From NCBI GenBank assembly GCA_040437565.1, contig JBDOQK010000009.1, positions 310,001-374,000 of the forward strand: 64,000 nucleotides of DNA, written 5' to 3'. The position numbers and the translations under genes are program-made. This stretch comes from Albugo candida. Taxonomy: Eukaryota. Under the pieces are notes generated by a model that was given only the letters and a program-made list of their open reading frames with translations, did not search any database and was not told the origin of the DNA. Below, piece by piece: positions 23,537 through 58,100 of this stretch; positions within the stretch are counted from its first letter, which is position 1; the number at the start of each line of letters is the position of its first letter.

Positions 23537-24701
23537 TGCACTGCGGTGGGGTGTTAACGTAGTAGGCTCGAGAATTGTCCCTCTACATGTAACTTAATTT
23601 GACGGTGCCATATCAAGGAGGAAGGAAGGTGTGACATTTATGCCTATTCGCTGCTTGTAACGGACCACGCACTTAACTAAACGTAAACGTTAAAATTCAA
23701 CAGAGCTGGAACAAAGTTGCCTGCCAACAACAGTTGCCTATATGTCAAGTTTATCTGGACGGATAAAGTACGAAATAAAAGTAAAATCCTTGTTCGTCAA
23801 TGTTGCGCTCAGGCACTTTGAATGAATTTTTTATTAGTGTGTATCGAAGTGGCGCATAATTCCTTGCGTACAAGGTCAAGTATTTGCAAACATTCTGTAA
23901 AGCGAATTCTTTGCTTTTGAATTTTCCTGCTTCAGTCAGTATCGGACGTGATGTTGCACGTATGTGTCCGCAGTACCATTATTTTGGTACCACTAAATCA
24001 TTGGCTCTGCATGGCCAAAACAGCTCGTATTACATCAATTTTCAAAATGAATGCCACTTTACCAGCTGTCATGTCTCGTGGCTAAATGCACTCTTCGTGC
24101 TTTGCTTGAGGCAATCTATGCATGTGCAGTTAAAAAGCAAGGCAAAAATCAATTTTCGTTCTGTCAGACTGATTGCCCAAGTTCACAATTGAATGGAGAG
24201 AGAATTCGCTATCTTTGCACTGCCTCTGGCGTGCAAAGAGTAACTTCGATCGACCGCTTTTCTGCCGATCACGTCAACGAAAGCGTCTAATGCTGGAGGA
24301 GACGCAGGGCTTAAGCTCGATCCAATGGCGATGAAAGCGGAGATTCAATCCTTGGAGATTTTCAATAAGTTTTGGAATGAGTACATGTATCAAAATTGCA
24401 CTATCTTTCCATCCGCTCTCAAATAACCAATAGAGTGAAATGATATACGCAGTGCAGAGAGAGATAGTTTTACAGTGCATTATCGTTGCGCTGAAGCTTC
24501 TACTTCACTCGCATGCACTAGAATTAACATCTTATCAATATCTGATGCTTATTAATACGCGTCAAGTAGCTGGTGGTGTAGCTAAATCAGCTCGGAAATC
24601 GCTTGCAAAATCGATTTAAATCGTCGTTTGCGTGTATTCAATTGGTCATAAACAGTAAAAAATGAATATAGACCAATAAAAAAGCTTCATTTTTGTGCTG
24701 G

Positions 24702-25757
24702 ATGGACGCGTTGCAAGCTATTCTTCGAACCAAAAAACGCGAATTCGCCTCCATTCAGGCTGAAAAAGCTCGAAAAAACGGAAAATACTTGCGTCGATCG
24801 GAGATAGAAGATATACTACATAATAAAGAGACTTCTACACCATCTGACAATGGGGATAAAACTGCTATTTCGACAAAGACTGACTCTCTTTTTGAATCTA
24901 ACGCACACGACATTTCACAAAGTTGTACTAAAAACGACCTGAACGGTGGGGAAAATGCCAATTTCAATCACTCATTTACAACACTCTCGTGGGTGGAACT
25001 TAAACGTCGCTTACGCGAGCTATCAGAGCCTGTGACACTCTTTGGAGAAGATCGACACGATCGAATCGCTCGTTTGCAGAGAGTTGAGCACGAGTTGATA
25101 TCAAAGGATGATGACGCACTAGGTCAAGGTCACGACATACAGAACAATTTCCTTCGAAAATACAAAGAAGAGAGACATCAAAACGATGAACATGAAGAAA
25201 ATCGACAAGACGAAGAGCCTGACGATCTCGATATAACACGCGGGAATAAGAAGAGTGACACTGAAGAAGGCGACATGGAAGAATCCAACCCTCATCTCAC
25301 AATCTATCGATTTTTTAAGAAAATGTTGCGCTCTTGGGAAAAAGACTTGGCGAATCGACCGGAAGATGTCAAAAGAACGATACAAGGCAAAATCGCGTCT
25401 AAAACGCTCAAACAGTGCAAAGACTATATCCGCCCATTATTCAAATTGTGCAAATTGGAACGTGTTCCAAATGACATTTTACCAAATTTGGTGGAAATTG
25501 TCAAATTTTGTCAAGCAAAGGAGTTTGTGCAAGCGAATGACGCGTATATCCGTTTGGCGATCGGGAATGCGGCCTGGCCTATCGGCGTCACGATGGTTGG
25601 AATTCACGAGCGAACTGGAAGAGAGAAGATCAATGCGAACAAGCAAGCGCATGTCATGAACAATGAAGGCCAACGAAAGTACTTGACATCGGTCAAAAGG
25701 CTGATGACATATTGTCAATCTATTTCCAATGTATTACCGTCGAAAAAAGTTTGCTAA
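24702..25757 (+). CDS. PRP18: Pre-mRNA splicing factor 18
   Basis: PRP4-like SFM motif (LKRRLRELSEPVTLFGE) and the Prp18 signature AIGNAAWPIGVTMVGIHERTGREKI...KYLTSVKRLMT. ATG at 24702. Confidence 0.95.
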   Translation: MDALQAILRTKKREFASIQAEKARKNGKYLRRSEIEDILHNKETSTPSDNGDKTAISTKTDSLFESNAHDISQSCTKNDLNGGENANFNHSFTTLSWVELKRRLRELSEPVTLFGEDRHDRIARLQRVEHELISKDDDALGQGHDIQNNFLRKYKEERHQNDEHEENRQDEEPDDLDITRGNKKSDTEEGDMEESNPHLTIYRFFKKMLRSWEKDLANRPEDVKRTIQGKIASKTLKQCKDYIRPLFKLCKLERVPNDILPNLVEIVKFCQAKEFVQANDAYIRLAIGNAAWPIGVTMVGIHERTGREKINANKQAHVMNNEGQRKYLTSVKRLMTYCQSISNVLPSKKVC

Positions 25758-28102: not shown

Positions 28103-29408
28103 ATGAGCACACCTCTTCTTCCAAGAGTACGTGCTGATGCATTCCTTTCTGCTTTCGCTTATCCTTGCACTTATATAGCCAGCGGGAAAATGCTGGCAAA
28201 ACAATGATGAATCCACAGCAGCTTGTTTCCAGTCAGAAACACGACCAACAACACCAGACCACGTGCGTCGTTATCGTAAATCCTATTTCGCCGAGCCTGG
28301 AGCTCGAATTGTTCATCCAGGTCTTATCAACGACACAAAGTCGGACCACGACACGATTTTCGGTTTGGTGACAGACAAAAGTCAGCATTTAAAGGACGTC
28401 ATGAGGACGGGTCCAAACACTGATTTTGGGTGGATGCAGCTACAGCAAAAGGAAGCTTTGTACGCTAGTCATCGTCGTGAGCCTTTGGGCAAGTCTTATT
28501 CTCGGGGACACGTCCTACCTCAGTGCATGCAAAATCCCGATTTCGCACACGGAACCATTGCAAGCACAAGTGAGTCCGCAAAGGAATTACTATACCCAAC
28601 TTTACCTCATTCACCCGATTCCGACGCACTGTATCGAAAAAGTCATCACGCGAGCTTACCCGGGGAACAGAAGAAGCGGGATTATGAATGGGGGGATCTA
28701 AAGCCTACTTCTCATCGATTTGGACGTGTCAATGTACAAGGAGAAAGCATAGACGCCTGCTTCCAGGACAGTCTTCATCCGATCCTCCGACTGAAACAAG
28801 TCGAAGATATGAGAGCACTCACTGATCGACTCGGTAAACCGCGATACCTCAGCGCAGCAAATAGAGCGTTGGACGCTACTCACGTGTACGGAAGTCGCCC
28901 GGCAAATGATGAGGGATCGGCGAGGGAATGCATTCAGAGCTGTTACTCACGTGAGGAACAAGAACCTGATGAGGATCTCGGAAAGCCTCGACATTATGGA
29001 TGGAAAAATACGACTTGCAAGTCAAGAACATTTGGTATACCTACGATACGCGCAGATATAAAAACTCCAAGCCATCGATCCATTGCAGATTGTCAGAATT
29101 ACGGCGATGATACCGCGACAAAAGAGCTTTTATACCCCTCAAAATTTGAAATGCATGGAATCTCTGAGGAAGAATTTACTCGACCGAGAGATGAGGCTTT
29201 CTTGCGATCTCTTTTTGTAAAAATCGGATTTGGGGAGAGTGATGAGATTGCGAAATTAGTATGGACTATTGTATGCGGAAAGAAAGAATGTGCGAGTATT
29301 GCTACGTATCGTGATACACTCAATGAATATTATGCAGCAAAGCGGAAAGGTGAAAGGGAGTTAGTATTGTGGAGGAAAAGAGCAGAGGCTGCAAGTAAAG
29401 TTTTGTAA
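28103..29408 (+). CDS. EFHB: EFHB/CFAP21-like axonemal protein (exon 1 28103-28126, intron 28127-28178)
   Basis: LYASHRREPLGKSYSRG, YRKSH...PGEQKKRDYEW, TFGIPTIRADI, IADCQNYGDD..A..LLYP motifs typical of EFHB. The phase-0 intron restores the frame. Confidence 0.8.
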
Positions 29409-35016: not shown

Positions 35017-35373
35017 CGCGAGACTTTCGCACCGTAACGGTTCGACACAGTTGGAGTGGCTTACATATATACACATGAATTTACTCGGATTAACGNNNNN
35101 NNNNNNNNNNNNNNNNNNNNNNNNNNNNNNNNNNNNNNNNNNNNNNNNNNNNNNNNNNNNNNNNNNNNNNNNNNNNNNNNNNNNNNNNNNNNNNNGAATT
35201 TACTCGGATTAACGTGGGTCACACGAGTAATAATCATAGTATGGTATTTTGCATAAAGCGGTATAATATTCAATGTCTTTTCCTCATAGAATAGGTTTTG
35301 TACTATTCGATTCGAAAATCACCTCTAACGCAGAGCTGTCTAACGTAAAAAACCGTTGGGGCACTTTGATTGT

Positions 35374-36663
35374 ATGGTGAGCCCTAGGACCGCCTCCAAT
35401 GAGGCTCTCTTGTATGCGGTAAATGGGCAATGGACTGAGCTTGACGCATTAGTTAGTCAATGTCCTAGCGTCGCGTGCGACTTGGATTCTGGTGGGATGA
35501 GCCTACTACACTGGATGTGCCTTCATCAGTCTATTAATTATGATACTATTGTCAGATTGATACAAGCGAATCCAAGCGCAATCGTGCAAAAGAACTCGGC
35601 TGGACATTATCCAATCGATCTGGCGCTACAAGCGCAATGTGAGGATAGAATCCTAGCTCTTTTGCAAATTGAGGATGAAGAAGTGGAGGATATACATGAA
35701 ATTAGGAACGATTTCGAGAGAACCAGACGTCAACCGCGTACTATACCTTTGTCGTATAAACATAGTGATTATAGTACGAATACTGGTCAATATTCCGAAT
35801 TCATGGAAGATAAAAACTATCGAAAGAAAGCAACATATAGTGAAAGTGGAAGCCTAATCGACAGAAGATTTAACCGTTATTCAGGCTATTCTGATTTGCC
35901 AAAGGTACAAACAGAAGAAGAGCGAGAATCACGGCAAGCAGATTATAACCTAAACTACATAAAACACTCCAGAAACGCGCCATCTGTATCGGACCGTGGA
36001 CCACATCATTTGGCATTTGATAAAACGAGTCGGACATCACGCAGTGGATCAACGTTCCAATTCGGTGACGATACAACAAGCAAAAAGTTTGTTCGCTCTC
36101 AAATGCCACTGTACTCGATCTACTCGGACGAATCAGTTGACACTCGATTGAACTTGGCGACTGAGAACCCGACTAAAAACATCAATTCCGAAAACGAAGA
36201 GCACTATCTACCACGAACCAGCTCACAATGCTTCGATAGAGAAAGCTCACAGAACGAAGATGATATGATCTCCATAAACAGCGAACCAATAAGTGGAATG
36301 GCATTTATCCGCAAAAGCCACATACAATCCAAAATACAGAGTCATTTGATAGAAGGCGACGAAGACCAGGACGGAGAGACACAATCTATTGTACAACGAA
36401 GATATAATCAGAATTTTCCACCTCGGTGGAAACAGTCACGTCGCTGCAACGTTTGTAATTACAGTTTTTCAATAATGAGACGACGGCATCATTGTCGTAA
36501 TTGTGGCCATAGTGTGTGCAGCCAGCACTCAAATCATCGTCTTCCATTGCCGAAATTCAATCTCATGCAACCACTTCGACTTTGTGATACTTGTTATGGG
36601 TCGCATGACTACATCGATCGACTTCCAGTCTCACAATCCTATTCTGTGATTGGAGAAAAATGA
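35374..36663 (+). CDS. Ankyrin-repeat + FYVE zinc-finger protein
   Basis: N-terminal ankyrin-like GMSLLHWMC / GHYPIDLA; C-terminal CNVC..F..MRRRHHCRNCGHSVC...RLCDTC. Confidence 0.85.
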   Translation: MVSPRTASNEALLYAVNGQWTELDALVSQCPSVACDLDSGGMSLLHWMCLHQSINYDTIVRLIQANPSAIVQKNSAGHYPIDLALQAQCEDRILALLQIEDEEVEDIHEIRNDFERTRRQPRTIPLSYKHSDYSTNTGQYSEFMEDKNYRKKATYSESGSLIDRRFNRYSGYSDLPKVQTEEERESRQADYNLNYIKHSRNAPSVSDRGPHHLAFDKTSRTSRSGSTFQFGDDTTSKKFVRSQMPLYSIYSDESVDTRLNLATENPTKNINSENEEHYLPRTSSQCFDRESSQNEDDMISINSEPISGMAFIRKSHIQSKIQSHLIEGDEDQDGETQSIVQRRYNQNFPPRWKQSRRCNVCNYSFSIMRRRHHCRNCGHSVCSQHSNHRLPLPKFNLMQPLRLCDTCYGSHDYIDRLPVSQSYSVIGEK

Positions 36664-38622: not shown

Positions 38623-38716
38623 CCATAATCCTGCATTTTTGTGTACTTATAATAACAAACCTGGAACTTTTTAAGATGATACGGTATTTGAGACGTTGAG
38701 ATAACATTGCTACGAC

Positions 38717-40441
38717 ATGAAGACAATGAATTCTGAATCAGATGAAAAGTCTGATTCTCATCATGAGGAATTCGCGTTGGACATTGGCGATGAATTTCTC
38801 GAAGATGAAGAAGAGAATGGATTTGTTGAATGGGAAGAGGAAGAAGGTGAAAAGAGAGAGAAAAATGATCAAAGTATTTGTACGAATGTCGACTGGGATG
38901 CGGTGAATAAATCGCTAGAGCAAGATAGTCAGAAGGGGAAAAGAAAACGAAGGAGGCTTTCAAAAGACGAAAAAAAACGAAATTTACTGCTTCATCAATC
39001 ACACTTGATTCTCTATCTGGCAGCTGCTACAGAATGGCATGCTAATTCTTGCAGTCACAACGTATTACGAGCTCTACTCTCATCTCTTGTGCCCGCTGAC
39101 TTATGGAATCAGAATCAAGCTATTGCTGCCAAATTACATAATTTGTGTCGGTTTTATAATCAACACTTTTCGTTGGTCAAAACAGAACGTAATGTATCCA
39201 GCGACTTGTGCGGTGAAGAGATGTTGTTGCATGCTTTTTCCGAGCGCAAGGCTACAAAAATTGCATTTCATCTATTATTTTTAGTATTATGTCGTAGCAT
39301 TGGATACTACTGCAGGCTTGTGGTAGCATTAGATGCATACCAGATCGATCTCAAAGCATCTGAGGATATCGTACTCAGAGATCCCGAATCAGATACATAC
39401 GCTCCGATAATCTGGATCGAAGTCTGGAATTCTGATACTCATTGGATTTCATGTGATGTGGCAAAAAATATTATCTCAGAACAACATCATCAGGAAATTC
39501 TTTCGAATAGATCAATCTCTTACATTCTCAGTATTGATCAAATCTCGGGGTTTGCAGTTGATGTAACAGCACGCTACGTGCACTCCTGGTCAAAAACCTT
39601 ACAACTTCGCCACGGACACCAATTCATCTCAAAATTAGTGGAGGCGCATAATCAACAGATCTTGGAAACCACGACAAAGTATGCCCCCATTCTCGCTCAA
39701 ATTGAACAAGAAAAGAAAGAGTTGCAGGAATTAGCTGATGCGGAAAGGATGCCGACCAGTATTGAAGGGTTCCGAAGGCACCATCGATATTGTCTAGAGC
39801 GACATCTTGGCCGATTGGAGGTCCTTTATCCTCGTCAAGTAATTGGCATTTTTAAGGGTCAACGTGTATACTTGCGTTGTCATATACAAAAACTTCAATC
39901 AGCACGGCATTGGCTCCGGCAAGGGCGTGTTATCAAGGAGGACGAAAAACTTCAACCATACAAGAAGCTTAATCGTAAAAAAGATACAAGGAACGGATGT
40001 GATGACCATCAACCGAGGGACATTGCACTGTATGGTCGATGGCAAACAGAAGATTTTGCTCCTTCTATCGTTATGGATGGAATACTCCCTAAAAATGAGC
40101 ATGGGAATATCGAATTATGGAGTGATAAACATCTCCCTATCGGTGCGACTCATTTACGCATGCCGCATATCACCGCTGCGGCGTCAAAGCTTGGAATCGA
40201 TTACGCACCCGCGTTGGTCGGTTTTGAGACGAAAAATGGAATCAATTATCCAAAGTTTGATGGTATCATAGTTGCTTTGTCCCATAAACAGCTTCTTATT
40301 GACGCGCATGCACATTTGGAGCAGAGAAAGATTGAGCATGCGATCGAACAGAATCAGAATCTGATACATAAACGATGGAAAAGACTCGTTCAGCGTATGC
40401 TCATTCGAAGTCGTCTGGAAAAAGATTATGGTAAAGTATAA
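38717..40441 (+). CDS. XPC: DNA damage recognition protein XPC/Rad4
   Basis: Transglutaminase-like region (WIEVW, DVTARY) and BHD motifs MPTSIEGFRRHHRYCLERHL, LYGRWQT, LPKNEHGNIE, KLGIDYAPALVGF. Confidence 0.95.
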   Translation: MKTMNSESDEKSDSHHEEFALDIGDEFLEDEEENGFVEWEEEEGEKREKNDQSICTNVDWDAVNKSLEQDSQKGKRKRRRLSKDEKKRNLLLHQSHLILYLAAATEWHANSCSHNVLRALLSSLVPADLWNQNQAIAAKLHNLCRFYNQHFSLVKTERNVSSDLCGEEMLLHAFSERKATKIAFHLLFLVLCRSIGYYCRLVVALDAYQIDLKASEDIVLRDPESDTYAPIIWIEVWNSDTHWISCDVAKNIISEQHHQEILSNRSISYILSIDQISGFAVDVTARYVHSWSKTLQLRHGHQFISKLVEAHNQQILETTTKYAPILAQIEQEKKELQELADAERMPTSIEGFRRHHRYCLERHLGRLEVLYPRQVIGIFKGQRVYLRCHIQKLQSARHWLRQGRVIKEDEKLQPYKKLNRKKDTRNGCDDHQPRDIALYGRWQTEDFAPSIVMDGILPKNEHGNIELWSDKHLPIGATHLRMPHITAAASKLGIDYAPALVGFETKNGINYPKFDGIIVALSHKQLLIDAHAHLEQRKIEHAIEQNQNLIHKRWKRLVQRMLIRSRLEKDYGKV

Positions 40442-42084: not shown

Positions 42085-43607
42085 ATGCGACGGACTTCCC
42101 ATATCTCTAAATCCTTCAAAACGCACACTTCGCTTAAAACTACACGTTTTTATTTGCCAACGCCCTCAATGAAGCCCGTAACTGAGTCTCACGATTCCGA
42201 ACGTAACGGGATCCATGATGTCCGACAGAGCGTTTTTGCCGAATTCGCTCAATACGCGCTTGATTATAACACTGTGAATCTCGGCCAGGGCTTTCCCTCT
42301 TTCAAAACACCAGAGTATGCTTACTGCACTTTACTCTTCCTTTGAATATACCATTTATTCCTCGCATAGATTCATCAAACAAGCCGCCATCGAAGCGATC
42401 AATGAGGACTACAACCAGTACTCGCGACCAGGAGGTCACCCGACGTTCGTTCAAGCGATTGCGAAGCTCTATTCTCCGTTTTTGGAACGCGATATTGATT
42501 GTATGACTGAGATTGTCACATTAAGCGGAGCACAAGGAGGCATAACAGCTATTGTATCGGCTCTTATGAATCGAGTACGCAGAATGCTGATCGAGTTACA
42601 CAAAGCATCATAACTTATTATTTGTGTAGGGGGATACAGTGGCCATTTTTGAGCCATACTTTGAGTCTTATGCTAGGATTGCGACCATGTTCGGCCTTAA
42701 GACTGTTGGAATTCCCTTCGAGACTGCTGTTCCTCGCGATCAAATAAGAACATCTGGCGACTACCATGTGAATCCAGAGAAGTTGGATAGTATCCTTGCC
42801 CGGGAAAATGTCAAAGCACTGATACTCAACACTCCACATAATCCCCTCGGAAAGGTTTTCACGCGAAAAGAACTGAAAGAAATCGTCCGCGTGCTTGAAA
42901 AATATCCCGATGTTTTGGTCATTTCCGATGAAGTGTACGAGTTTATGTGTTATGATGGTCGAAAACATGAGCGAATTGCAACCATGTCAAACATGTTTGA
43001 TCGTACGATTTCACTATTTAGTGCCGGGAAAACGTTTTCTTGCACTGGGTGGCGTATAGGTTACGCTATAGCCCCACAGCATTTGGCTCAAACACTTCGT
43101 GAAGCGCAAATTCTATTGACATTTTGTGCTGCCACACCATTGGAGATCGCTGTGGCCAAATCCATGGAGCTAGCACCTAAGCTTGACTTCTTTGATGAGC
43201 AAGCTAAAGAGCTACAATCAATGCGGGATCAACTGTATCAAGCTCTTGATGAGGCAGGATGGCATCCGATTCTTCCGGAAGGTGGATATTTCATCTGCTG
43301 TGATATTTCAAAGCATGAAATGTTTCAGAAATATGCGGATACGCCAGTTGACAAGTCAATGCCATACAGTGTACGTTCAAGCACCTTATCGATGCCGATT
43401 AGTGACTTGTTTTTTGTATGGTAGCAATATCCGGACTACCAGTTTGCTCTCGATTTATGTCAAAAACACAAATTGTCGACGATTCCAATGTCGGGTTTCT
43501 ATGCAAACGCGGACAGTGTGACTGAGACGGGGATGATCCGATTGGCTTTTTGCAAAGACAAAGCGACATTGGATGCGGCGATAAGTATTATTCGTCAGAT
43601 CAAATAA
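42085..43607 (+). CDS. Kynurenine-oxoglutarate (class I) aminotransferase; exons 42085-42314, 42370-42574, 42630-43370, 43425-43607
   Basis: VNLGQGFP, NQYSRPGGHP, ILNTPHNPLGKVF, ISDEVY, SAGKTFSCTGWRIGY (PLP lysine), IRLAFCK. The basic N-terminus may be a mitochondrial presequence. Confidence 0.93.
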
Positions 43608-46900: not shown

Positions 46901-48844
46901 AAGGAGCTTACAAACGCACGGAATGTGGTCAATGGGTACATGTTCAGTGTTTCTTATGGATCCCAGAACTCCAGCTTAAATGTGCTACTGCTTGTGCTTT
47001 CGAATTGGGGAGTTTGGACGCATTAGACCCAGATCGTTCCCAATTGCGTTGTGAGCTATGTCACTCCATGAAAGGAAGCGGTGTCATTCAATGTGCCTCG
47101 CCTTCATGCCTCGCTGCCTTTCACGCAACTTGTGCTTCCTTGGCAGAGACGTATATGCTCCATCAATCGTCAACCTGGCAAGCCACAGGTGAAAGTGTCG
47201 ATTTTATTGCATATTGTCCGCTCCACATACTTCGACAAGAGACATTATCTCCGAGTAGGAAAAGTGCATGTGACCAAATACTGTCACCGAGCATGTTACT
47301 ATCGACTCCATCTCAAACTCGGACACGCCGCTTCCGCCGACTAAAGCGAAAACGAGCCTCCGTGTCGAAAGCCATTGGACATTGTGCGTCGAAAGTACGT
47401 CGTGAGAATGTACAGCTCGCTGCTCAACTTTTTGTGGAAGAGGACGCTGAAGTTGTGGACGCTAGTGAGGAAGATGAATATCGAAGCGATTTGAGTCAGA
47501 TTTCGACGGATTCCTTTATCAACGATTCGTCCCAACTTGTGTACTCGCAAAGTGTCGCTCAGTCAAATTCGAGGAAATCAGATGATCGCATGCGTGCGAT
47601 CTACGCGCAATCTATCATGGAGTCACCAGAGCTTTTCAAGTTTGATGATTTAAAGACGAAGACGGGGATTCGAGCTCCAAGAGGAAAGGCTTTACGAGGC
47701 TTGCCGGCAAACGGAGTGATTCGATCGTGCTTGAAACGATTGTATCAAGACCAAAGTGATGAGTGTCAGCTTTCTACGAGCATCGGTGAAGAATCTGATT
47801 CAGAAGTAGAGCCTGAACATGAGATTACTCCGTCTCTTTCTATTTCGGAAATGCAAGAGAATGGGACGCAAAAAGAGGATGAAGGAGCAATGGAGGCTTC
47901 GATACGATGTTTTGATAAGAATTTGCACTTTTCGGACAGCTCTGATGCTCAACGACAAATCCCACTAGAAGAAGACGAGAAACCACCTGAACCCCATCCG
48001 GTAGCACTCGATCAGCTTCACGATAAGACGGAGAGCGATTGTTGCAAGTCACAAGCAACAAATCAAAACTTTGTGTCTGGCGATTCGGACACATCGAATG
48101 TCTCAAAATGCACAATCTTTATCAGCCACCAATTTGCTTCCATACACAAACAATTGTACAAGTCAATTCAGCACGAGAGTCACATCATTACAAAGCCTCT
48201 GGACGCCGATATACTTTTGAGTCTTGGAGTCGCGGTCGTTTGTCTAATGTCGAGTCCAATTGCCCAATGCGTCGAAGGAAAAAGATTACTTGCGTTGGCG
48301 ACAATCCATCAGCGACTGATTGTCCTTTTCTACAGCTTGGAATCACCGGATTGTAACACTCTTGAGCAAGATCCTTTCTCGATTTTGCAACACGCATGTG
48401 AGCAGAAGGAATTGGAGACGCTCAAGAAATGCGCTAATCTCGAAGTTCAGCTTCATCATGGCATTCCAGGGGCGATCAAGTCGATGATCATGTGTGCGAG
48501 GTACGATCCTTGTCATCCTTTTACGAGACATTCGATGTTATCCTTTTGCTGATAGGAGAGAGGCGGAATCGGGATTTCCACTGTCAATTTTGGTATCAGA
48601 TAAGCTCGGAAATCATCTCACAGCTGCGACAGTAAATGAAGAATTTCGAAAACGATATCACTTTTTCTTGTCATGCCATGAAATATCAGTAAATGGAGCA
48701 ATTTCACTGTCCTTCCGATTCAAATCCTTCAAAGTTGAAAAGATCCCAGTGCAAAAATTCAACTCGAACCACTGGCGACGAATGCTTCCCAACCTTTCTT
48801 TGGCAGCGGCGAATGCTATCGTTGCTCATTTTTGCGATAAATAG
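43941..48844 (+). CDS. FANCM: FANCM/Mph1-family DEAH helicase with N-terminal RanBP2-type finger and internal PHD-Zn-knuckle-PHD; start lies in or upstream of the gap; last intron 48501-48555
   Basis: IREYQ, LPTGLGKT, LAPTKPLVTQQ, IDEAH, LSATPG, VATCIAEEGLDI, IQRMGRTGRKR; FVEEDAEV...DSFIND...MRAIY motif of FANCM; CLIC..IVYCDGCDITVHQDCYGI..WFCDVC and CALCP..GAYKRT..WVHVQC. Confidence 0.93.
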
Positions 48845-51212
48845 ACATTGTTGATGAAAGTATTTAAAACTAATGATTGTAAAACTCAGCAAAGATTCCG
48901 ATCAGCTAATGTTTGCATTTCATGAGCAAAGTTTCGGGAGGTTGAGGCATTCTGGACACCCTCTTTGTCAATCCCAGCAACTTTGCATCGTGAGTTTAAA
49001 GCTCCCATCGATATGGACACTGAGTACATATAATGATTATACGAGTACGATCTACAATCGCCTTTCGCCTCCACTGACGATATCTAGTTCGTGAGCATCC
49101 ACAACTTCGGCACTCAAACATATCGGATTCTGTAAGACCCTCTAAATCAGGTGTGTTTCGCATCACCTCATACGTCCTTTTCTTCATCCATTGTTTTCGT
49201 TGCTTTACGAGCTGCGGATTTGCCATCTCATTAGCAGACATACGAACCAATGCAGATGCACTCAATTCCCCCGACAAAAGTCTATCGCGCAAGAAATCAT
49301 TTCGAGAGTCTCGTAGATTGAATAATAGTTGTCGAGCTTTCTGTCCGTACGCTTTTGGCAACGTGCAGCTACAAAAAGGGTCATCAGTCATCATACGGTC
49401 ACGTTTGTATGGAAATCTGACTGTAACGTACCACTCTTTGTACAGTTCAAATAGCTGATTCTCGACCTCCATTACGATTCGGTCAAAGTTGTCGGTCAGC
49501 GGTCTCATTATTTTGCTCAGACAATCCTGAAACCTTCTCCTTGAATCTGTACANNNNNNNNNNNNNNNNNNNNNNNNNNNNNNNNNNNNNNNNNNNNNNN
49601 NNNNNNNNNNNNNNNNNNNNNNNNNNNNNNNNNNNNNNNNNNNNNNNNNNNNNCATCCGGTAGCACTCGATCAGCTTCACGATAAGACGGAGAGCGATTG
49701 TTGCAAGTCACAAGCAACAAATCAAAACTTTGTGTCTGGCGATTCGGACACATCGAATGTCTCAAAATGCACAATCTTTATCAGCCACCAATTTGCTTCC
49801 ATACACAAACAATTGTACAAGTCAATTCAGCACGAGAGTCACATCATTACAAAGCCTCTGGACGCCGATATACTTTTGAGTCTTGGAGTCGCGGTCGTTT
49901 GTCTAATGTCGAGTCCAATTGCCCAATGCGTCGAAGGAAAAAGATTACTTGCGTTGGCGACAATCCATCAGCGACTGATTGTCCTTTTCTACAGCTTGGA
50001 ATCACCGGATTGTAACACTCTTGAGCAAGATCCTTTCTCGATTTTGCAACACGCATGTGAGCAGAAGGAATTGGAGACGCTCAAGAAATGCGCTAATCTC
50101 GAAGTTCAGCTTCATCATGGCATTCCAGGGGCGATCAAGTCGATGATCATGTGTGCGAGGTACGATCCTTGTCATCCTTTTACGAGACATTCGATGTTAT
50201 CCTTTTGCTGATAGGAGAGAGGCGGAATCGGGATTTCCACTGTCAATTTTGGTATCAGATAAGCTCGGAAATCATCTCACAGCTGCGACAGTAAATGAAG
50301 AATTTCGAAAACGATATCACTTTTTCTTGTCATGCCATGAAATATCAGTAAATGGAGCAATTTCACTGTCCTTCCGATTCAAATCCTTCAAAGTTGAAAA
50401 GATCCCAGTGCAAAAATTCAACTCGAACCACTGGCGACGAATGCTTCCCAACCTTTCTTTGGCAGCGGCGAATGCTATCGTTGCTCATTTTTGCGATAAA
50501 TAGACATTGTTGATGAAAGTATTTAAAACTAATGATTGTAAAACTCAGCAAAGATTCCGATCAGCTAATGTTTGCATTTCATGAGCAAAGTTTCGGGAGG
50601 TTGAGGCATTCTGGACACCCTCTTTGTCAATCCCAGCAACTTTGCATCGTGAGTTTAAAGCTCCCATCGATATGGACACTGAGTACATATAATGATTATA
50701 CGAGTACGATCTACAATCGCCTTTCGCCTCCACTGACGATATCTAGTTCGTGAGCATCCACAACTTCGGCACTCAAACATATCGGATTCTGTAAGACCCT
50801 CTAAATCAGGTGTGTTTCGCATCACCTCATACGTCCTTTTCTTCATCCATTGTTTTCGTTGCTTTACGAGCTGCGGATTTGCCATCTCATTAGCAGACAT
50901 ACGAACCAATGCAGATGCACTCAATTCCCCCGACAAAAGTCTATCGCGCAAGAAATCATTTCGAGAGTCTCGTAGATTGAATAATAGTTGTCGAGCTTTC
51001 TGTCCGTACGCTTTTGGCAACGTGCAGCTACAAAAAGGGTCATCAGTCATCATACGGTCACGTTTGTATGGAAATCTGACTGTAACGTACCACTCTTTGT
51101 ACAGTTCAAATAGCTGATTCTCGACCTCCATTACGATTCGGTCAAAGTTGTCGGTCAGCGGTCTCATTATTTTGCTCAGACAATCCTGAAACCTTCTCCT
51201 TGAATCTGTACA
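47995..51212. repeat. Identical 1.56-kb duplicate across an N gap (47995-49553 = 49654-51212), assembly artefact
   Basis: ORF translations are identical in both copies, which flank a 100-N gap. Confidence 0.9.
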
Positions 51213-51568
51213 ACAATATCAATTGATGTGATCGCTATGACTCATAAAAACTTACAGATCGTCATGGCGTGGCTCCAGGCTTTTGAAACACGACCCAATT
51301 GGGTGAATGCAGCAATTTTCAAAAGCACTTCCAAGGGCAAGTCATTCGCAATGAACCCCACCGATTTGTTCGGACTTTCCCCGCATTTAAAGTCTGTTTT
51401 GTCACATACAAAGGCTTTGAAACGATAAAGTTGGATGGACGAAGAGAAATGACCTTTTTGACGATATCTCAATTCGAATAGCTCTTCTTCGATTTCGGAA
51501 CAAAGCACTTCGTCGTGACGTTCACTCTGCTCGGCTTCAACGATAAGGCTTGTATTCAGAGGTAGCAT
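50655..51568 (-). CDS. F-box-like motif + TFIIS central domain + TFIIS-type zinc ribbon protein (intron 51206-51255; probable in-frame 63-nt intron near 51030-51090)
   Basis: NDLPLEVLLKIAAF..LGRVSKAW; KARQLLFNLRDSRNDFLRDRLLSGELSASALVRMSANEMAN; MFECRSCG...ICTQCPYRW. The start could be 51568 or 51613. The partial copy at 48996-49553 is the artefact. Confidence 0.8.
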
Positions 51569-52559
51569 AGTACTACAAGGTCTGGTGACGTATATTTTCT
51601 GGAATGAAGGCATTCCTCGAGTAAGTTTACAAAGCATTATGACTGGTTGAAATATTATATAAGATTGATCCAATTGCAATCAGCTAACTTTGTGGCATGA
51701 TAATACCACAAACGCCATCATTTGGCTTTCGTGCAGAGTGCTCTGATATTGGTCTAAAATCTAAATTAAAGAGAGTAGTTTAGGCAAGCTGATTCATCAT
51801 CCCCAGCTCTTTATTTACTACTAAAAGCATAAACCATGTTTCTCATAAATCACACATATTCGTATCAGTCAAACTATAATCAGAGTATACCGCATTACGG
51901 TTGCACGGGCCCTATCCACCGGCTCGTTATATTTGTGTATTTGTGCTGACATGTGTCGCAGTGGATAGGCAAGTACTGCAGCGAAGACGCGTATTTGAGT
52001 TATACGCATTGGACTGCAGAAAACTCTAATACGATCGTTTTGCTGCGATAAAATTTGTGTACAGCGTAAGAAAGTATACATGCCTCAGGTTACACAGACA
52101 ATTTTGTGAGCTCATACCGGTGCGTCAAATTCGTACCAAATTGTGATACGAGTTTATACCTGTTAATCGCCGTATATAATAGCCACTCATACGTGACCAG
52201 AGGGCGCCATCAAATTTGCGGAATGCCGTTTAGTGAACAAGGAAATGCATGCAATTATACCGAACTTTCTATCTTAGAGAGAACTCACTCCAAGGTTTCG
52301 CAGAATGCCCATAACACTTTTAACGTGGAGGTTTAGCGTTGAGGCGTTTGTTCATCCGATGTATTCTCACGAGCACTTACTTCTGTGGGTGGGCGATGGC
52401 CATCACGGCTAACTATTCAATATGCCAAAAAATAAGACCACAGACTTTCATGCTTGGCTTTAAGGTTACATGGTATACGATGCAGCAAAGTTCATAGCAA
52501 ACACTATGCAATTCAAGCAACAAGTGAGAGAATACGTTGTTCGTATTCAATTGCCGATT

Positions 52560-53722: not shown

Positions 53723-55183
53723 TCATTTTTTCTCTTCATGGAACAAGAAGAAAACAGTCAGCAACAGCACACCGGCCATCATTGAGAATGCTGACAAGTA
53801 GTACGGGAAGGCTGTCGGAATGAAACGCTCATATTCGTCATGTTTGAATGGCCGAACAGAGACCTGCGTTGTGGAGTATAGCGTCGAGAGCCCCAAACGG
53901 CGATACATCACACGAAAAAGAAAAATCCCGTACTGATCCGGTGCTTGGAATGTGGTCGAGTAGTGTCCTTTTTTATCGTGAGTCATTGTACGTCGAACAT
54001 ATGGATCCAGCATTACGAATTCCAGCTGCACATCGTCTGCCATAAATGGTTTCCATTCTCCATTACGATATTCATGGATGTCCAAAGAGTAAGTCAAATT
54101 GTCACAGATTCGGTATACCAAGGAGTCCCGAGCAATCTCAGCATCCGGATACCTCGTCACTGGCTGGTCGGATCGTGCTGTGTTTTTGAGCATTCGATCC
54201 GGTTTGCTTCCGTCTTCTCGTTGATGATGCACGTTTGACATGCGTAAAACGCCGACCTCTTGGAAAACCCATTTGCTTATACTACTCACAAAGACTTCAT
54301 TTGCAAAGTCTGAAGTAAAGTATTCATCGGAAAAGAGTTCCATGGAGCCAGAAAATATCGCACGAGCATTGTTGCGTGCTTGAACGGCGGTAACAAGTCC
54401 GATTGCTGAGCCGTATACACTTTTCCGACACGCATCACCCTTTGGATTACACAAATAGGATGTCGAAGGTGCGTGTAGAACATGGAATGCAAGGATGCTG
54501 CTTGTATCAATGGCTGTACCAAGACCTTGGAATGCGATCTGTTTCCCAGTCGAAGGAGTCGGTCCAACGACATGAGAAGATGGAGTGAAATCAGACGCCA
54601 AAATGATCGAATTATACAGATTGTTGGCTGTTTCGACGCGAGCGACATGATCCAATACGACCATAGCATCCGATGAAAACGAAATACCACACTGAAGGGA
54701 GAATTTGCGAAGACCTTTGCTCAATTGAGAGCTGCAGATAAACAAGACAAGTCAGCAAATGATAGGAAGCTGACGCAACGTACTTTGCGCCAAGAAGTAT
54801 GTTTCCTCCTTTGTCCAAAAAATCCATCAAATGTCGAGCGGTGAGACGAGTGGCTTTGATATCCGAGCTAAAAATGATCAAATGATCGAACAGGTTTTCA
54901 TCGTATTTCTCGAGAAGAAAAGCTTTTGTCGCATTTCCAAAGTCAAAAGTGAGCGAATGCCCTTGTTCTGATACAAAACATTACAATCGATGTAAAGTAA
55001 ATGCACTGTGTCGCATGCATAGAATGGATGTGCTTTTCATGTACCTCTCAATTGATCAAAGAATTTCGAGTACGTCGATACTCCTCGGTCATTCTCCAAA
55101 AGCACAGCGGTGCGAACACCTTTTGATGCGATAATCTTTAAAGAGATACAATGCAACATCACGAAAAGAAGCGTGCTGGCCAT
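53723..55183 (-). CDS. WBP1: Oligosaccharyltransferase 48-kDa subunit (WBP1/DDOST), 2 introns
   Basis: Signal peptide; FLDKGGNILL, QARNNARAIFSGS, DDVQLEFVMLDPYVR, PDQYGIFLFRV, VRPFKHDEYERFI..AFPYY; C-terminal TM and terminal di-lysine. Confidence 0.95.
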
Positions 55184-55319: not shown

Positions 55320-57972
55320 CTATGCGTTCCCACCAGACACCTTCATGGCAGAGTCCGGTCGCACTTCACTGTATTTTGATGTACCCGGTGGACCATTCGT
55401 CTGAATGAAAGAGATATTTGACCCATCTATAGAATTTACGTGTCCACTTTGCCCAAGTGCGATTGATGGAGCATTCAACGCTTCAAAATGAGGCAAAACT
55501 TCTTGTCCTGGCGGCAGTCCATATCGCATCTGTTCTGCCATCATGACTGGATGCAGTGGCGGTCGTGTCATCGACATGTCTATCCGATTTTCGCCATTTG
55601 ATGCAATGGGATTGTCATGAGGTGGTTTTTGTGCTGAAAAGCTGTGATAATCTTGACGAATGGAAGTGACAAGTGCTCGAGCTTGTTCGCATGCAATAGT
55701 GAAACTTCGTTCATTTTCAGACGATATGAGAACTGCAAGTGGCTCGTTGGCTATTTCTTCTGCTCCAGGCTCTTTTGATCCCGATCCTCGTCCACGAAGT
55801 CGAATCTTTGCATTCCCACCAGCTTCCGCTATTATTCGCTTCATATGCGCACCACTCGGTCCGATGATTCGTTTCGTCACACAAAATTCTGGATCATCAT
55901 CGATTCCAATGACAATCCTTTCAAAATACGCAGGTGGAGAAGTCGATTCAGTTGTGTCATTTACACCAGCAAAAGCCGTTTGTGAGGGTTCAACGACGTG
56001 AGGTGGACGAAATGGTGGAACGTTAGGATGAGGAAGGACCACACCACATCGCTGGGCAAAGATATCAGCCAATTTTTGTGTCACCGAAAGAGTGATTGGT
56101 CCAATACGAACGCCACGATCACCAAAAAGTTGTTTAATCATCGGCTCGGTGGTCGAAATGGGTGGAGCATTCATTTGGACGACAAAGCGCGTTTGTACCG
56201 GAAATGGTGACATTTGGTGAGGTGAATGGCTAAATGCATTGGGCACCATGTTGACAATAGATGGCGATACGGCCTCAAAAACACCAAGAAGGTGTCGATC
56301 CGACATATTGAGAAGGAAGAGCGGCGTCCCTGGAACGACGTGTTGCTTCGCTATTGCTTCATGGTCTTTGCCAAGTCCAAACAGTAAACGACCAAAACAC
56401 TCATCGATTGTCAAATTGTTGCATGCAAATACGAATCCCGGAATGGAAACTCGCCAGTGAAAAGTTGAGAGCGTATTGGGATTATTATAAACACTGGCAG
56501 CAGCCTCTCGACGTCGTACTGCGAGCTCGAATGCTCCACCATTCAATGCCTGTTCGTCTTCAACTGATTTATAATGGAGCTGAATCTGTGGTTGAGAGAA
56601 AAGGATACGCAGACATGTTCGCCCTTGATCGATTTCGAGTTGCAGGAATTTTGGTCTACAAGAAAAGTGAGATTTTTGCGAATTTGGCTGCTGCAATTGA
56701 AGGAACAACTTACGCATTTGGAACAAACAGATATTTGGATGCGACATTTTCAAAGCATTCCCACGGACACTCACAAATTCGGAGCCATTCAATTGGAAAC
56801 ACGCCATCCCACGATGGGCGGGTATCTGTTTGATACGGCACAATACCAGAGCTCAAGTCTTCTCCACGAGTTGGTAGTCGTTGTATAACGTCTCTAGTGA
56901 GTCGAATCACCCCTTGAAAATGCCTGCTAGAGGTGACTGTGATAAACATAAAGACGACCTCGTAGCTATCTGCTAACTCTCTAAGCTGTTGCTGGGAAGA
57001 ACTCGATAATGACCATTGTTGGTAGTGAACGGAATGCGCGATATTGTGATAACTGAATGAATGCAATATGAAATATGCGCAATTTCGATCAGCATCCGGA
57101 AGTCTCGGTTGAGGTTCTTGCAATGGAATAGAATGAATCGCTTCATTGACCGGAAAGCTGTCGGGAGCCCCTGCTTTCTGAAATCCAATCGGATCTGCAC
57201 GTTCATTTTGTCGCGGAAAAGGTCGTAATTCCTGCTCGCCATGTGCGAAATGACACTCATCGCCAAAAGGGCACGAACCCAATTTTTCCCAATGTTTACA
57301 GATTGCAATTTTATAAAATTCATTCACAGGTTGCGTTTTCCGTCGCTTTACATTCTCTTCTTCTGCGACTTTGGACTGAAGTGCGAAATCGGCTGTTTCG
57401 GGACATTCTTCTCGTGCCAATTTGATATGACTGAATTTCACAATGTATACAATTTATGATACAATATCATTAGTATAAGACCGAATGTTGTGAGCAGACA
57501 TCGCGTTACCGATAGCGACAATTGGGACCATGAGAGCAGAATCCTTGTCTATAAAATGCACATTCCATACGATCTTCATCTGGAACATGACGAAATGGAC
57601 ATTCTGGAACTTGGCATTCCATTCCCCAGCGACATTCGGGCATTTTGGACATGTCGTACTATTATTTGCAATCAATTTATGAGATTACGCTCTGTTACGC
57701 AATTTGAAGAGAATACAACGTACTTGGTGCAAAAATTCACAAGAATCGCCCTTCATACAGAGTCCACGGAGCCAATGCCGACATACAACCGTGCCTCGTT
57801 TGAAATCTTTCTTCATTCCGTCATCCTCGTTTGATAAAAAACGAGAAATACCAGACGATGTATTATTTCCATTGGAATGGGAATCGTTTGGATCATTGCG
57901 TTGACTTGCGAGCTCGAAATCAAACCGTAAATGCTGCTCTTCTTCGTCGCGAAGTAGTAAGCCGAGAACCAT
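55320..57972 (-). CDS. CPSF30: CPSF30-like CCCH protein fused to an extra CCCH, YTH, DCD and KH domains (multi-exon)
   Basis: LRFDFE, VCRHWLRGLCMKGDSCEFLH; KIAICKHW..GSCPFGDECHFAHG; YTH YFILHS..NIAHSV...W, SRHFQG, FPIEWL; DCD GFVFACNNLTIDECFGRLLFGL..PGTPLFLLN; KH KRIIGPSGAHMKRI...KIRLRGRGSG. A GT-AG intron at ~56658-56713 joins the frames. Confidence 0.88.
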
Positions 57973-58100
57973 TCGCAAATTCTGAAAGGGATGGGAGAAG
58001 TACAGTGAGTAGTATATTAAAGGCCGATTAAGGAAGATACCGCTCAAGAGGACCGCGACCTTTCAAGATCGCGCAATCGCCAAACACCACCAATTTGCAA

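Follow-up and report, generated by a model that had tools for sequence, protein, structure and literature searches.

An expressed Albugo TFIIS look-alike with an F-box-like motif and an altered ribbon hairpin, a possible marker of RNA polymerase II for ubiquitin ligation

In the 64,000-nucleotide stretch of Albugo candida DNA analysed here (the window), a four-exon gene was found on the minus strand at 50655-51568, encoding a mature protein of 246 aa given a start at the ATG at 51568-51566. The product resembles TFIIS, and this white-rust gene is real and expressed: its three GT..AG introns are missing from one X1 contig and one X3 contig. Both runs come from one study, and their label as RNA is an automatic guess, backed solely by the spliced joints; no source run is recorded as RNA. 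The reading frame, an F-box-like motif and a TFIIS-type ribbon hairpin had been pointed out by an earlier sequence-only reading of the window, and all three are present as it described. The coordinates given below, all on the minus strand, were worked out manually from those of the exons and verified on the sequence.

Coding exon 1 (51454..51568; X1/X3 contigs) supplies residues 1-38 plus one base and contains a conserved acidic helix motif, EIEEELFEL (51470-51496), which aligns with WALELEEEL of other oomycetes. It is followed by intron 1 (51394..51453; 60 nt, GT..AG), which is in frame, lies in the N-terminal region and is read as coding in the public A. candida model P0004, while the joint 51393/51454 is found in both X1 and X3. 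Coding exon 2 (51256..51393), covered by the same contigs, holds the whole F-box-like motif. Intron 2 (51206..51255; 50 nt, GTAAGT..ACAG) had been predicted by the sequence-only reading and is indeed skipped in the X1 and X3 contigs; the DNA-type run X6 is unspliced across it. Coding exon 3 (51091..51205; X1/X3 contigs) encodes the first helices of TFIIS domain II, and intron 3 (51028..51090; 63 nt, GTACGT..TTGTAG) interrupts that domain in frame. The latter intron is read as coding in gene call P0003, but none of the 17 rows in the oomycete alignment, P0004 among them, contains its residues, the alignment becomes gapless after their removal, and the joint 51027/51091 is present in X1 and X3. 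Coding exon 4 (50655..51027; open reading frame and X1/X3 contigs) contains the rest of domain II, the linker and the zinc ribbon, and ends with the stop codon TAA (50655-50657). The earlier gene model, in which introns 1 and 3 were taken as coding, was therefore replaced.

The transcribed span seen so far, defined by open reading frames and X1 and X3 contig coverage, is 50655..51599, the two contigs ending at 51599 and 51598. These contigs continue below 50500 into adjoining DNA, and the lower bound given is that of the stop codon rather than of the transcript. Translation may start at the ATG at 51568, as in P0004, or at an upstream ATG (51611..51613) that would add 15 residues. The latter, chosen in the earlier model, is in frame with no intervening stop, but it lies beyond the ends of the X1 and X3 contigs; a low-depth piece from X5 (51457-51665) reaches past it. 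A tandem duplication was considered for a second partial copy at 48996-49553 and rejected; the copy is better explained by an artefact of scaffolding, with 1559 identical bases flanking a 100-N gap.

Downstream of the F-box-like motif, the protein carries a TFIIS central domain (domain II; mature residues S86-L176, 50868..51203, split by intron 3), an interdomain linker (V177-M206, 50778..50867) and a TFIIS-type zinc ribbon (domain III; 50658..50777) with the cysteines C209, C212, C237 and C240; domain II and the ribbon had been recognised by the sequence-only reading. Pfam TFIIS_M was matched at 1e-18 on the raw exon and at 4.4e-22 on P0004, above the 29.2-bit cut-off, and also in 17 of 17 oomycete orthologues (best 1.3e-23). 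A profile search of the PDB gave a match to human TCEA1 that is collinear through the ribbon (8.8e-18), as well as matches to the TFIIS-like domains of PHF3 and Bye1. In the AF2 model, domain II is helical with block-mean pLDDT values of 85-96 and one block at 76, and the best Foldseek matches of the model were TFIIS chains in Pol II complexes (7unc_O, 5.5e-8). The linker, collinear with that of TCEA1, is 4 residues longer and has a mean conservation of 0.87. For the ribbon, whose mean conservation is 0.92, Pfam Zn_ribbon_TFIIS remained sub-threshold in 16 of the 17 orthologues (best E 0.085), and the comparison with the isolated TFIIS ribbon 1tfi gave 5.7e-4, with a Foldseek TM of 0.72 and an rmsd of 2.5 over 47 columns. 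Judged by this homology, the protein probably binds Pol II.

The TFIIS N-terminal domain (TFIIS_N/Med26, PF08711) was not matched in any of the 17 orthologues (Pfam, E<=10), and neither PHD nor SPOC was matched in the same search. The architecture is thus not that of the TCEANC type, an identity that the sequence-only reading had kept in view. In Bye1, PHF3 and DIDO, and in TCEANC, the TFIIS central domain likewise serves as a Pol II docking module, but there, according to PMC12139180 and in part to general knowledge, its partners are either PHD and SPOC or TFIIS_N, and these proteins are not known to have an F-box. The relationship to TFIIS itself (TCEA1 / Dst1) is closer, since domain II, the linker and the four-cysteine ribbon are collinear and homologous and the spacing of the cysteine pairs is the same; the Albugo protein differs in having no PF08711, V-D for DE and an F-box-derived motif upstream, and in its position beyond a branch with a support of 99.

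The ribbon hairpin RQWRRKAIVDRTR (50700..50738) can be aligned with canonical TFIIS without gaps. QTRSADEP of TFIIS corresponds to RRKA(I/V)VDR, so that the Asp-Glu pair is replaced by V228-D229 (50709-50714) in a basic hairpin, and the family consensus, WRRK..VDR, is basic with one conserved acid. Throughout the family, the Asp position of the dyad is hydrophobic or otherwise non-acidic, confirming the loss of the DE dyad noted earlier. D229 stands at the TFIIS Glu position and is nearly invariant (as D250 in alignment A3, where at least 90% of 20 sequences have it), the basic tip residues are R223, R224, K225, R230 and R232, and the canonical 24 residues between the cysteine pairs are retained. 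The hairpin is also the most conserved segment of the protein (mean conservation 0.95), which marks it as re-specified rather than degraded. The earlier label "catalytically dead" accordingly fits the missing DE dyad; beyond that it is a prediction and an incomplete one, given the retained D229, the canonical length and the high conservation. With one acid kept in the most conserved segment, active-site chemistry beyond mere blockage is possible.

The protein could in principle still be a transcript-cleavage factor, with altered chemistry based on one Arg-flanked Asp or with a special class of arrested complexes as its substrate. The near-invariant acid at the Glu position and the canonical hairpin length would fit such a role. 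However, TFIIS-stimulated cleavage needs the Asp-Glu dipeptide, as stated in PMC2994637, citing Jeon 1994, and the first position of the dyad is non-acidic family-wide. We therefore regard a surviving cleavage activity as highly improbable, and the protein probably does not stimulate cleavage.

A basic hairpin devoid of the DE dyad, in the most conserved part of the protein, also suggests a pure TFIIS antagonist or regulator that competes in the Pol II pore, with the basic tip holding or destabilising the complex. Here, the F-box would no longer recruit a ligase, but would make some other contact or extend domain II. There are two precedents. The yeast mutant TFIISMut (D290A/E291A) still associates with Pol II; it prevents intrinsic cleavage and leads to polyubiquitylation of the polymerase (PMC2994637). 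In archaeal TFS proteins, a basic ribbon tip yields an inhibitor, and a chimera of yeast TFIIS and TFS4 has an inhibitory effect on Pol II (PMC5715097). Like the engineered TFIISMut, the Albugo protein has a TFIIS body and a tip of normal length and is predicted to be non-catalytic; unlike it, it occurs naturally and is conserved, its tip is basic and retains one Asp, and it has a putative ligase-recruiting motif of its own. The likeness to TFS4 is that of a cleavage-factor paralogue whose ribbon tip has turned basic, a change that is inhibitory in TFS4 (PMC5715097). In contrast to the Albugo hairpin, which is not shortened, that of TFS4 is shortened (PMC5715097), with KKK and no acid, and TFS4 has an N-terminal zinc ribbon in place of domain II and is not known to have an F-box. 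TFS4 is archaeal (PMC5715097) and arose independently, and it shares no subfamily homology with the Albugo protein.

The motif upstream of the TFIIS module, LPLEVLLKIAAF..GRVSKAW (mature residues D56-M82, 51263..51343), is contiguous coding sequence covered by the spliced contigs. By itself, the motif stays below the Pfam threshold (F-box-like, E=0.05, 13.8 bits vs a cut-off of 24.3), and so do the matches at E<=10 found in 15 of the 17 oomycete orthologues (best 5.2e-4). An oomycete-only profile gave four PDB matches at E<=10, the top two being the F-boxes of TIR1 (0.57) and FBXL2 (1.1). The parts LP.EVL..I..F and V.K.W are kept, with 5 residues between them compared to 11-12 in canonical F-boxes; the shortened region is what we take to be F-box helix 2, which contacts Skp1. 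In the AF2 model (about 60 pLDDT), the motif forms two helices, the second continuous with helix 1 of domain II. It was also considered as the first helix of TFIIS_M itself, a reading that was dropped because the TCEA1 alignment puts helix 1 downstream of the motif. The segment is conserved across the 17-row oomycete alignment, an aspect that the sequence-only reading had singled out for checking: LP.EVL is close to invariant (at least 90%), and none of the 17 rows departs from G-R-V-.-K-.-W-S-.-A.

The shortened spacer and the helix running into domain II would fit an antagonist. Nevertheless, the segment is conserved as well as domain II (mean conservation 0.83 vs 0.78), and the kept residues (LP, E, the hydrophobic first-helix positions and V.K.W) are those typical of F-boxes. 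Complete F-boxes, moreover, are retained in relatives. Taken together with the unshortened hairpin, these features make a pure antagonist rather unlikely.

The relatives also bear on the origin of the motif. F-boxes above the Pfam threshold were found next to TFIIS_M in six of them, on the same side of the tree and in the same position: P0054 (F-box-like 1.1e-9, F-box 5.2e-8), P0098 (1.2e-6), and P0058, P0068, P0125 and P0164, in which the F-box is marginally over the cut-off. An N-terminal profile of the relatives matched FBXO6 (4e-7), FBXO44 and Skp2 in the PDB, with values for FBXO6 and Skp2 ranging from 4e-7 to 1e-5, and hhalign joined the oomycete motif to the N-termini of the distant relatives with 97.1% probability (E 5.8e-11) across a 6-residue gap. 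Sequence comparison thus indicates that the motif is F-box-derived, and the earlier assignment is upheld as to ancestry, while the oomycete form itself falls short of the Pfam threshold. Similar to FBXO-class F-box proteins, the family places an N-terminal F-box before a binding module that is neither WD40 nor LRR; it differs from them in that this module is TFIIS II-III and the oomycete F-box is about 6 residues short and sub-threshold in Pfam.

In the tree, 36 of 36 non-DE rows fall on one side of the branch that sets them apart from canonical TFIIS, and the canonical hairpin pattern R-[SGAR]-[AGS]-D-E occurs in none of these 36 rows; in P0085 and P0125, a D-E pair is shifted one position further on. 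Among the best 150 representatives, an F-box-profile match (i-E<=1e-3) was obtained for 0 of 79 with a DE hairpin and for 18 of the 50 whose hairpin is non-DE. Of these 18, nine were absent from the training alignments, and many of the remaining non-DE rows are fragments lacking the N-terminal region (e.g. 121-190 aa). Because the non-DE rows all lie on one side of the branch, the linkage between F-box and non-DE hairpin represents essentially one evolutionary event with no independent replication. Seven oomycete genera, together with Nannochloropsis, are represented among the named family members. A second subclade of the family has the hairpin VHR.IRAG...VDRARTY. P0184 of Symbiodinium natans was rejected as a member, as it has TFIIS_M alone, with neither F-box nor ribbon. 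A search of the accessible literature on this architecture and on TFIIS in oomycetes found no description of F-box plus TFIIS II-III, and "F-box" is absent from the main text of a 2025 review on TFIIS-family architectures.

F-box receptors usually consist of an N-terminal F-box and a C-terminal target-binding module. The gene belongs to an old TFIIS paralogue family in which an F-box replaces domain I and a basic one-acid hairpin replaces the Asp-Glu tip. Based on the above, we propose, with a probability of roughly 0.4, that its product acts as a Pol II-bound SCF receptor. Domain II would dock on RNA polymerase II as in TFIIS; the linker and ribbon would enter the pore, where the re-specified tip would fill the TFIIS site without stimulating transcript cleavage; and the N-terminal F-box would tether a Skp1-Cul1 ligase to the polymerase. 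Acting as a substrate receptor, the protein would handle Pol II that has arrested or backtracked, with Pol II as the putative ubiquitylated target, and may mark the polymerase for ubiquitin ligation instead of rescuing it. As judged from sequence, the role of an SCF adaptor for Pol II is plausible. Recruitment of Skp1/SCF is likely for the relatives with full F-boxes, and for the oomycete form with its shortened spacer it is somewhat doubtful, an even bet at best. Skp1 was not found among the 41 window ORFs scanned, which were chosen from 55 ORFs of at least 110 aa.

Elongin A combines a TFIIS N-terminal domain with a BC-box for Elongin B/C; by contrast, the Albugo protein would pair an F-box, for Skp1/Cul1, with TFIIS domains II-III. 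Elongin A, of a Cul5 ligase, and yeast Ela1 nonetheless resemble the proposed receptor in being elongation-related proteins that double as Pol II ligase receptors (PMC5399097, PMC8294581), Elongin A being a cullin-RING substrate receptor for Pol II (PMC5399097).

The F-box ancestry of the motif would equally suit a protein that binds Skp1 and is no ligase receptor for Pol II, either within a non-SCF Skp1 complex or with the F-box destabilising the factor itself, keeping a potentially toxic TFIIS competitor low or under cell-cycle or stress regulation. F-box proteins are known to form Skp1 complexes outside SCF and to undergo self-ubiquitylation. Tight control would also make sense given the toxicity of TFIISMut-like proteins (PMC2994637). 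Nothing in the present evidence separates this explanation from the SCF receptor, and it is open to the same doubts on Skp1 binding; we consider it improbable.

Cells' discrimination between hopelessly arrested and merely paused Pol II before degradation is still debated. A natural protein in which a TFIIS pore-binding module without rescue chemistry is coupled to an F-box would solve this problem simply in some lineages. In a more specific form of the SCF-receptor proposal, which we regard as unlikely, the protein is a pore-inserting ubiquitin-ligase receptor whose basic/Asp tip recognises polymerases with backtracked RNA via the secondary channel while the F-box brings Skp1-Cul1. If that were true, arrest would be detected within the enzyme itself and lead straight to Rpb1 ubiquitylation. 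If the protein were an inhibitor only, eukaryotes would have their own equivalent of archaeal TFS4. The family would offer a testable system in tractable relatives, e.g. Phytophthora and Nannochloropsis, and, should it be such a pore-inserting receptor, it would provide stramenopiles and further eukaryote lineages with a "last resort" pathway of their own, whose mechanism would differ from those of the Elongin A, Def1 and Nedd4 routes.

The two minus-strand frames joined in a sequence-only reading are both present from stop to stop, one ending ...LPLEVLLKIAAFTQLGRVSKAWSHAMTI and the other running SRRRF...RQWRRKAIVDRTR...CTQCPYRWEL to the stop codon at 50655-50657, in a window of ~38-46% G+C. 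They are separated by a 50-nt intron (GTAAGT...ACAG, 51206-51255). Splicing was checked by placing public contigs of sequencing runs X1, X3 and X6 on positions 50500-51800; X1 and X3 come from one study, and their 'RNA' label is a guess backed only by their splice joints. One X1 contig and one X3 contig each omit three stretches, 51028-51090 (63 nt), 51206-51255 and 51394-51453 (60 nt), all with ends reading CT..AC on the plus strand, that is, GT..AG on the minus strand, and the DNA-type run X6 is continuous and unspliced across all three. The predicted intron is thus confirmed to the base, but the sequence-only reading had missed the other two, which lie in frame and open and were therefore invisible to it. 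Independent support for the 63-nt intron comes from the oomycete alignment, where its 21 residues are absent from all 17 rows, including P0004, the public Albugo candida record (266 aa), and which is gapless once they are removed. P0004 is the closest named protein and differs from the window protein by one residue and by intron handling, which places the window in A. candida or a very near relative. Existing gene calls mishandle the in-frame introns: P0004 reads the 60-nt intron as coding, which adds 20 residues, and the gene call P0003 (170 aa) begins at an internal Met and includes the 63-nt intron. Translation of the spliced message from a candidate start ATG at 51568-51566 gives 246 aa; the X1 and X3 contigs end at 51599 and 51598, respectively, and the previously proposed ATG at 51613, in frame and within a low-depth piece of run X5, is an alternative candidate start.

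The window is draft sequence, heavily scaffolded, with eleven gaps of exactly 100 N (starting at 1293, 2229, 12227, 13120, 25901, 32749, 35096, 40619, 43841, 49554 and 63252). Because 1559 identical bases (47995-49553 and 49654-51212) flank the gap at 49554-49653, a second partial gene copy appears at ~48996-49553, comprising the last two exons and reaching into intron 2. This arrangement disfavours a tandem duplication, and the second copy appears to be a scaffolding artefact in which overlapping contig ends were left uncollapsed. Eight neighbouring open frames, on the plus strand (24672-25754, 28179-29405, 35344-36660, 38705-40438 and 42278-43421) and the minus strand (53726-54980, 55323-56852 and 56713-58062), carry ordinary eukaryotic domains: Prp18, EFHB/CFAP77-like EF-hand, FYVE, Rad4/XPC, class I/II aminotransferase, OST48, KH with DCD, and YTH with CCCH zinc fingers. 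Among the window open frames scanned for domains, none was found to encode a Skp1, a cullin or a polymerase subunit.

The assignment of TFIIS domain II and a zinc ribbon to this gene held. Pfam TFIIS_M matched the raw exon (1e-18), P0004 (4.4e-22) and all 17 oomycete orthologues, in which no TFIIS N-terminal domain, PHD or SPOC was found by Pfam. A profile of the 17 orthologues matched human TCEA1 in the PDB (8.8e-18), with the alignment extending through linker and ribbon, as well as the isolated TFIIS ribbon 1tfi (5.7e-4). The AlphaFold2 model of P0004 (mean pLDDT 69.2) has a helical domain II with block means of 85-96 (one block 76) and a three-stranded ribbon; in Foldseek, its top likeness was to TFIIS chains in Pol II complexes (7unc_O, 5.5e-8), and the Bye1 TFIIS-like domain (4.7e-5) and 1tfi (TM 0.72) were also matched.

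The ribbon hairpin is altered as proposed. Its cysteine pairs are 24 residues apart, equal to canonical TFIIS, and it aligns without gaps, Q-T-R-S-A-D-E-P becoming R-R-K-A-I/V-V-D-R, so that the D-E pair is lost: the TFIIS Asp is replaced by Val, and the Glu by an Asp; every oomycete sequence in the alignment has this Asp, as do at least 90% of the sequences in the 20-sequence family alignment. Averaged over the columns of the oomycete alignment, conservation is 0.95 for the hairpin, compared with 0.92 for the ribbon, 0.87 for the linker, 0.83 for the F-box-like motif, 0.78 for domain II and 0.33 for the N-terminal region. The hairpin value rules out a decaying relic, and as judged from the alignment the tip is a new, strongly constrained surface. 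TFIIS-stimulated cleavage is reported to require the Asp290-Glu291 dipeptide, and a double-alanine mutant to bind Pol II normally with cleavage blocked (PMC2994637). By analogy, we infer that this hairpin would be unable to stimulate cleavage; a cleavage factor with altered chemistry, with which the invariant Asp might be reconciled, is very improbable.

The proposed F-box-like motif is below threshold in the window sequence by itself (Pfam F-box-like E=0.05; 13.8 bits, where the cut-off is 24.3), but stands when its relatives are considered. F-box-like matches at E<=10 occur in 15 of 17 orthologues (best 5.2e-4), and a profile of eight oomycete motifs ranked the TIR1 (E 0.57) and FBXL2 (E 1.1) F-boxes highest among 177,635 PDB sequences. 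An exhaustive profile search yielded 2609 matches at E<=1e-3, mostly ordinary TFIIS, among which several distant relatives share the layout with a complete F-box. In the relative P0054, F-box-like (1.1e-9), F-box (5.2e-8), TFIIS_M (1.4e-19) and Zn_ribbon_TFIIS (8.7e-7) were all matched; F-box reached 1.2e-6 in P0098, and P0058, P0068, P0125 and P0164 lay barely over the cut-off. A profile of eight relatives' N-termini matched FBXO6 (4e-7), FBXO44 (5.2e-7) and Skp2 (6.3e-6) in the PDB, and aligned to the oomycete motif profile with 97.1% probability (E 5.8e-11) and one six-residue gap. At the level of sequence comparison, the distant relatives thus supply decisive evidence for an F-box origin of the motif.

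The spacer between the aromatic residue that closes the motif's first part and the V of V.K.W, as read from alignments, is 5 residues in oomycetes, 5-9 in some relatives, including Nannochloropsis oceanica P0077, and 11-12 in full-length relatives, TIR1 and FBXO6; we take it to be F-box helix 2. Because the motif is contiguous in exon 2 and covered by spliced contigs, its short form does not stem from a faulty gene model. In the AlphaFold2 model the region forms two helices (79-88 and 96-118, P0004 numbering; ~60 pLDDT), the second running into domain II helix 1. The main rival reading, an inhibitor only whose oomycete motif is no longer linked to a ligase, would accommodate this shortening, less readily the conservation of the motif, and is unlikely. 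Upstream lies a conserved acidic amphipathic motif (51470-51496, minus strand; oomycete alignment columns ~55-65), which reads EIEEELFEL in Albugo, other oomycetes having (D/E)n-WALELEEEL; distant relatives carry similar acidic (W/F)A.ELE motifs, repeated three times in P0056. The conserved motif may form a helix for docking or dimerisation.

In the set of the 150 best representatives, hairpins were classed by pattern as DE (79) or non-DE (50), and 21, mostly fragments or merged models, had no detected ribbon. F-box-profile matches (i-E<=1e-3) occurred in 0/79 DE, 18/50 non-DE (nine outside the training alignments) and 11/21 ribbon-less proteins. A quick maximum-likelihood tree (simple model) was built from domains II-III only, excluding the F-box region, for the 108 representatives that have a ribbon preceded by at least 150 residues. 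A branch with support 99 puts all 36 non-DE rows on one side, and 71 DE rows plus one degenerate row, P0172, on the other. Because the non-DE rows all lie beyond one branch, the link between F-box and DE loss is probably a single old event, not repeated evidence. The non-DE side holds two 17-row groups, one with WRRK..VDR tips, including oomycetes and Nannochloropsis, and a second (support 99) whose tip, VHR.IRAG...VDRARTY, is longer by one residue in most members. Members of this second subclade are P0050, P0057, P0060-P0063, P0066, P0068, P0072-P0075, P0084, P0086, P0093, P0094, P0116, P0117, P0130 and P0158. P0054 and P0098 lie near the base of the non-DE side on long branches, for which the tree tool gave a long-branch warning. 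Two members, P0085 and P0125, have hairpins reading ..VDEVST.., with a D-E pair shifted by one position. Named family members come from Albugo, Phytophthora, Peronospora, Hyaloperonospora, Plasmopara, Pythium, Lagenidium and Nannochloropsis oceanica, and the others are metagenome or run-assembly proteins. In four longer predicted proteins the F-box-like/TFIIS_M part is joined to a ThiF (E1-like) fragment (P0036), ankyrin repeats (P0039), EH together with a sub-threshold ARMC5-type ARM region (P0040) or a lysine methyltransferase (P0043); most likely, models of adjacent genes were merged in these cases.

No description of an F-box combined with TFIIS (zinc ribbon, central domain or PF07500), or of such a protein in oomycetes or Phytophthora, was found in the literature searched; the few papers sharing these terms concern unrelated subjects. 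'F-box' is absent from the main text of a 2025 review of TFIIS-superfamily architectures, whose concluding section covers only TFIIS and BYE1 homologues, and in a 2014 census of stramenopile transcription factors TFIIS appears solely as a family count. Public records name these proteins 'TFIIS central domain-containing protein' or 'hypothetical'.

An N-terminal F-box followed by a C-terminal binding module is the layout of F-box substrate receptors. The present protein matches it, its binding module being the TFIIS segment responsible for docking on Pol II and reaching the active site. Elongin A is an elongation factor that doubles as a cullin-RING receptor for Pol II (PMC5399097). TFIIS engineered to lack the dyad traps backtracked Pol II and triggers its polyubiquitylation (PMC2994637), and archaeal TFS4 and a yeast TFIIS-TFS4 chimera are made inhibitory by a basic tip (PMC5715097), a precedent that inhibition alone would share. 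A Skp1-bound factor that is either non-ligase or self-limiting would also fit the F-box ancestry, and appears more doubtful still. By analogy with these systems, we tentatively favour, at a probability of about 40%, a non-rescuing TFIIS paralogue whose TFIIS-derived module would bind in the Pol II pore and whose putative F-box would bridge the bound polymerase to Skp1-Cul1.
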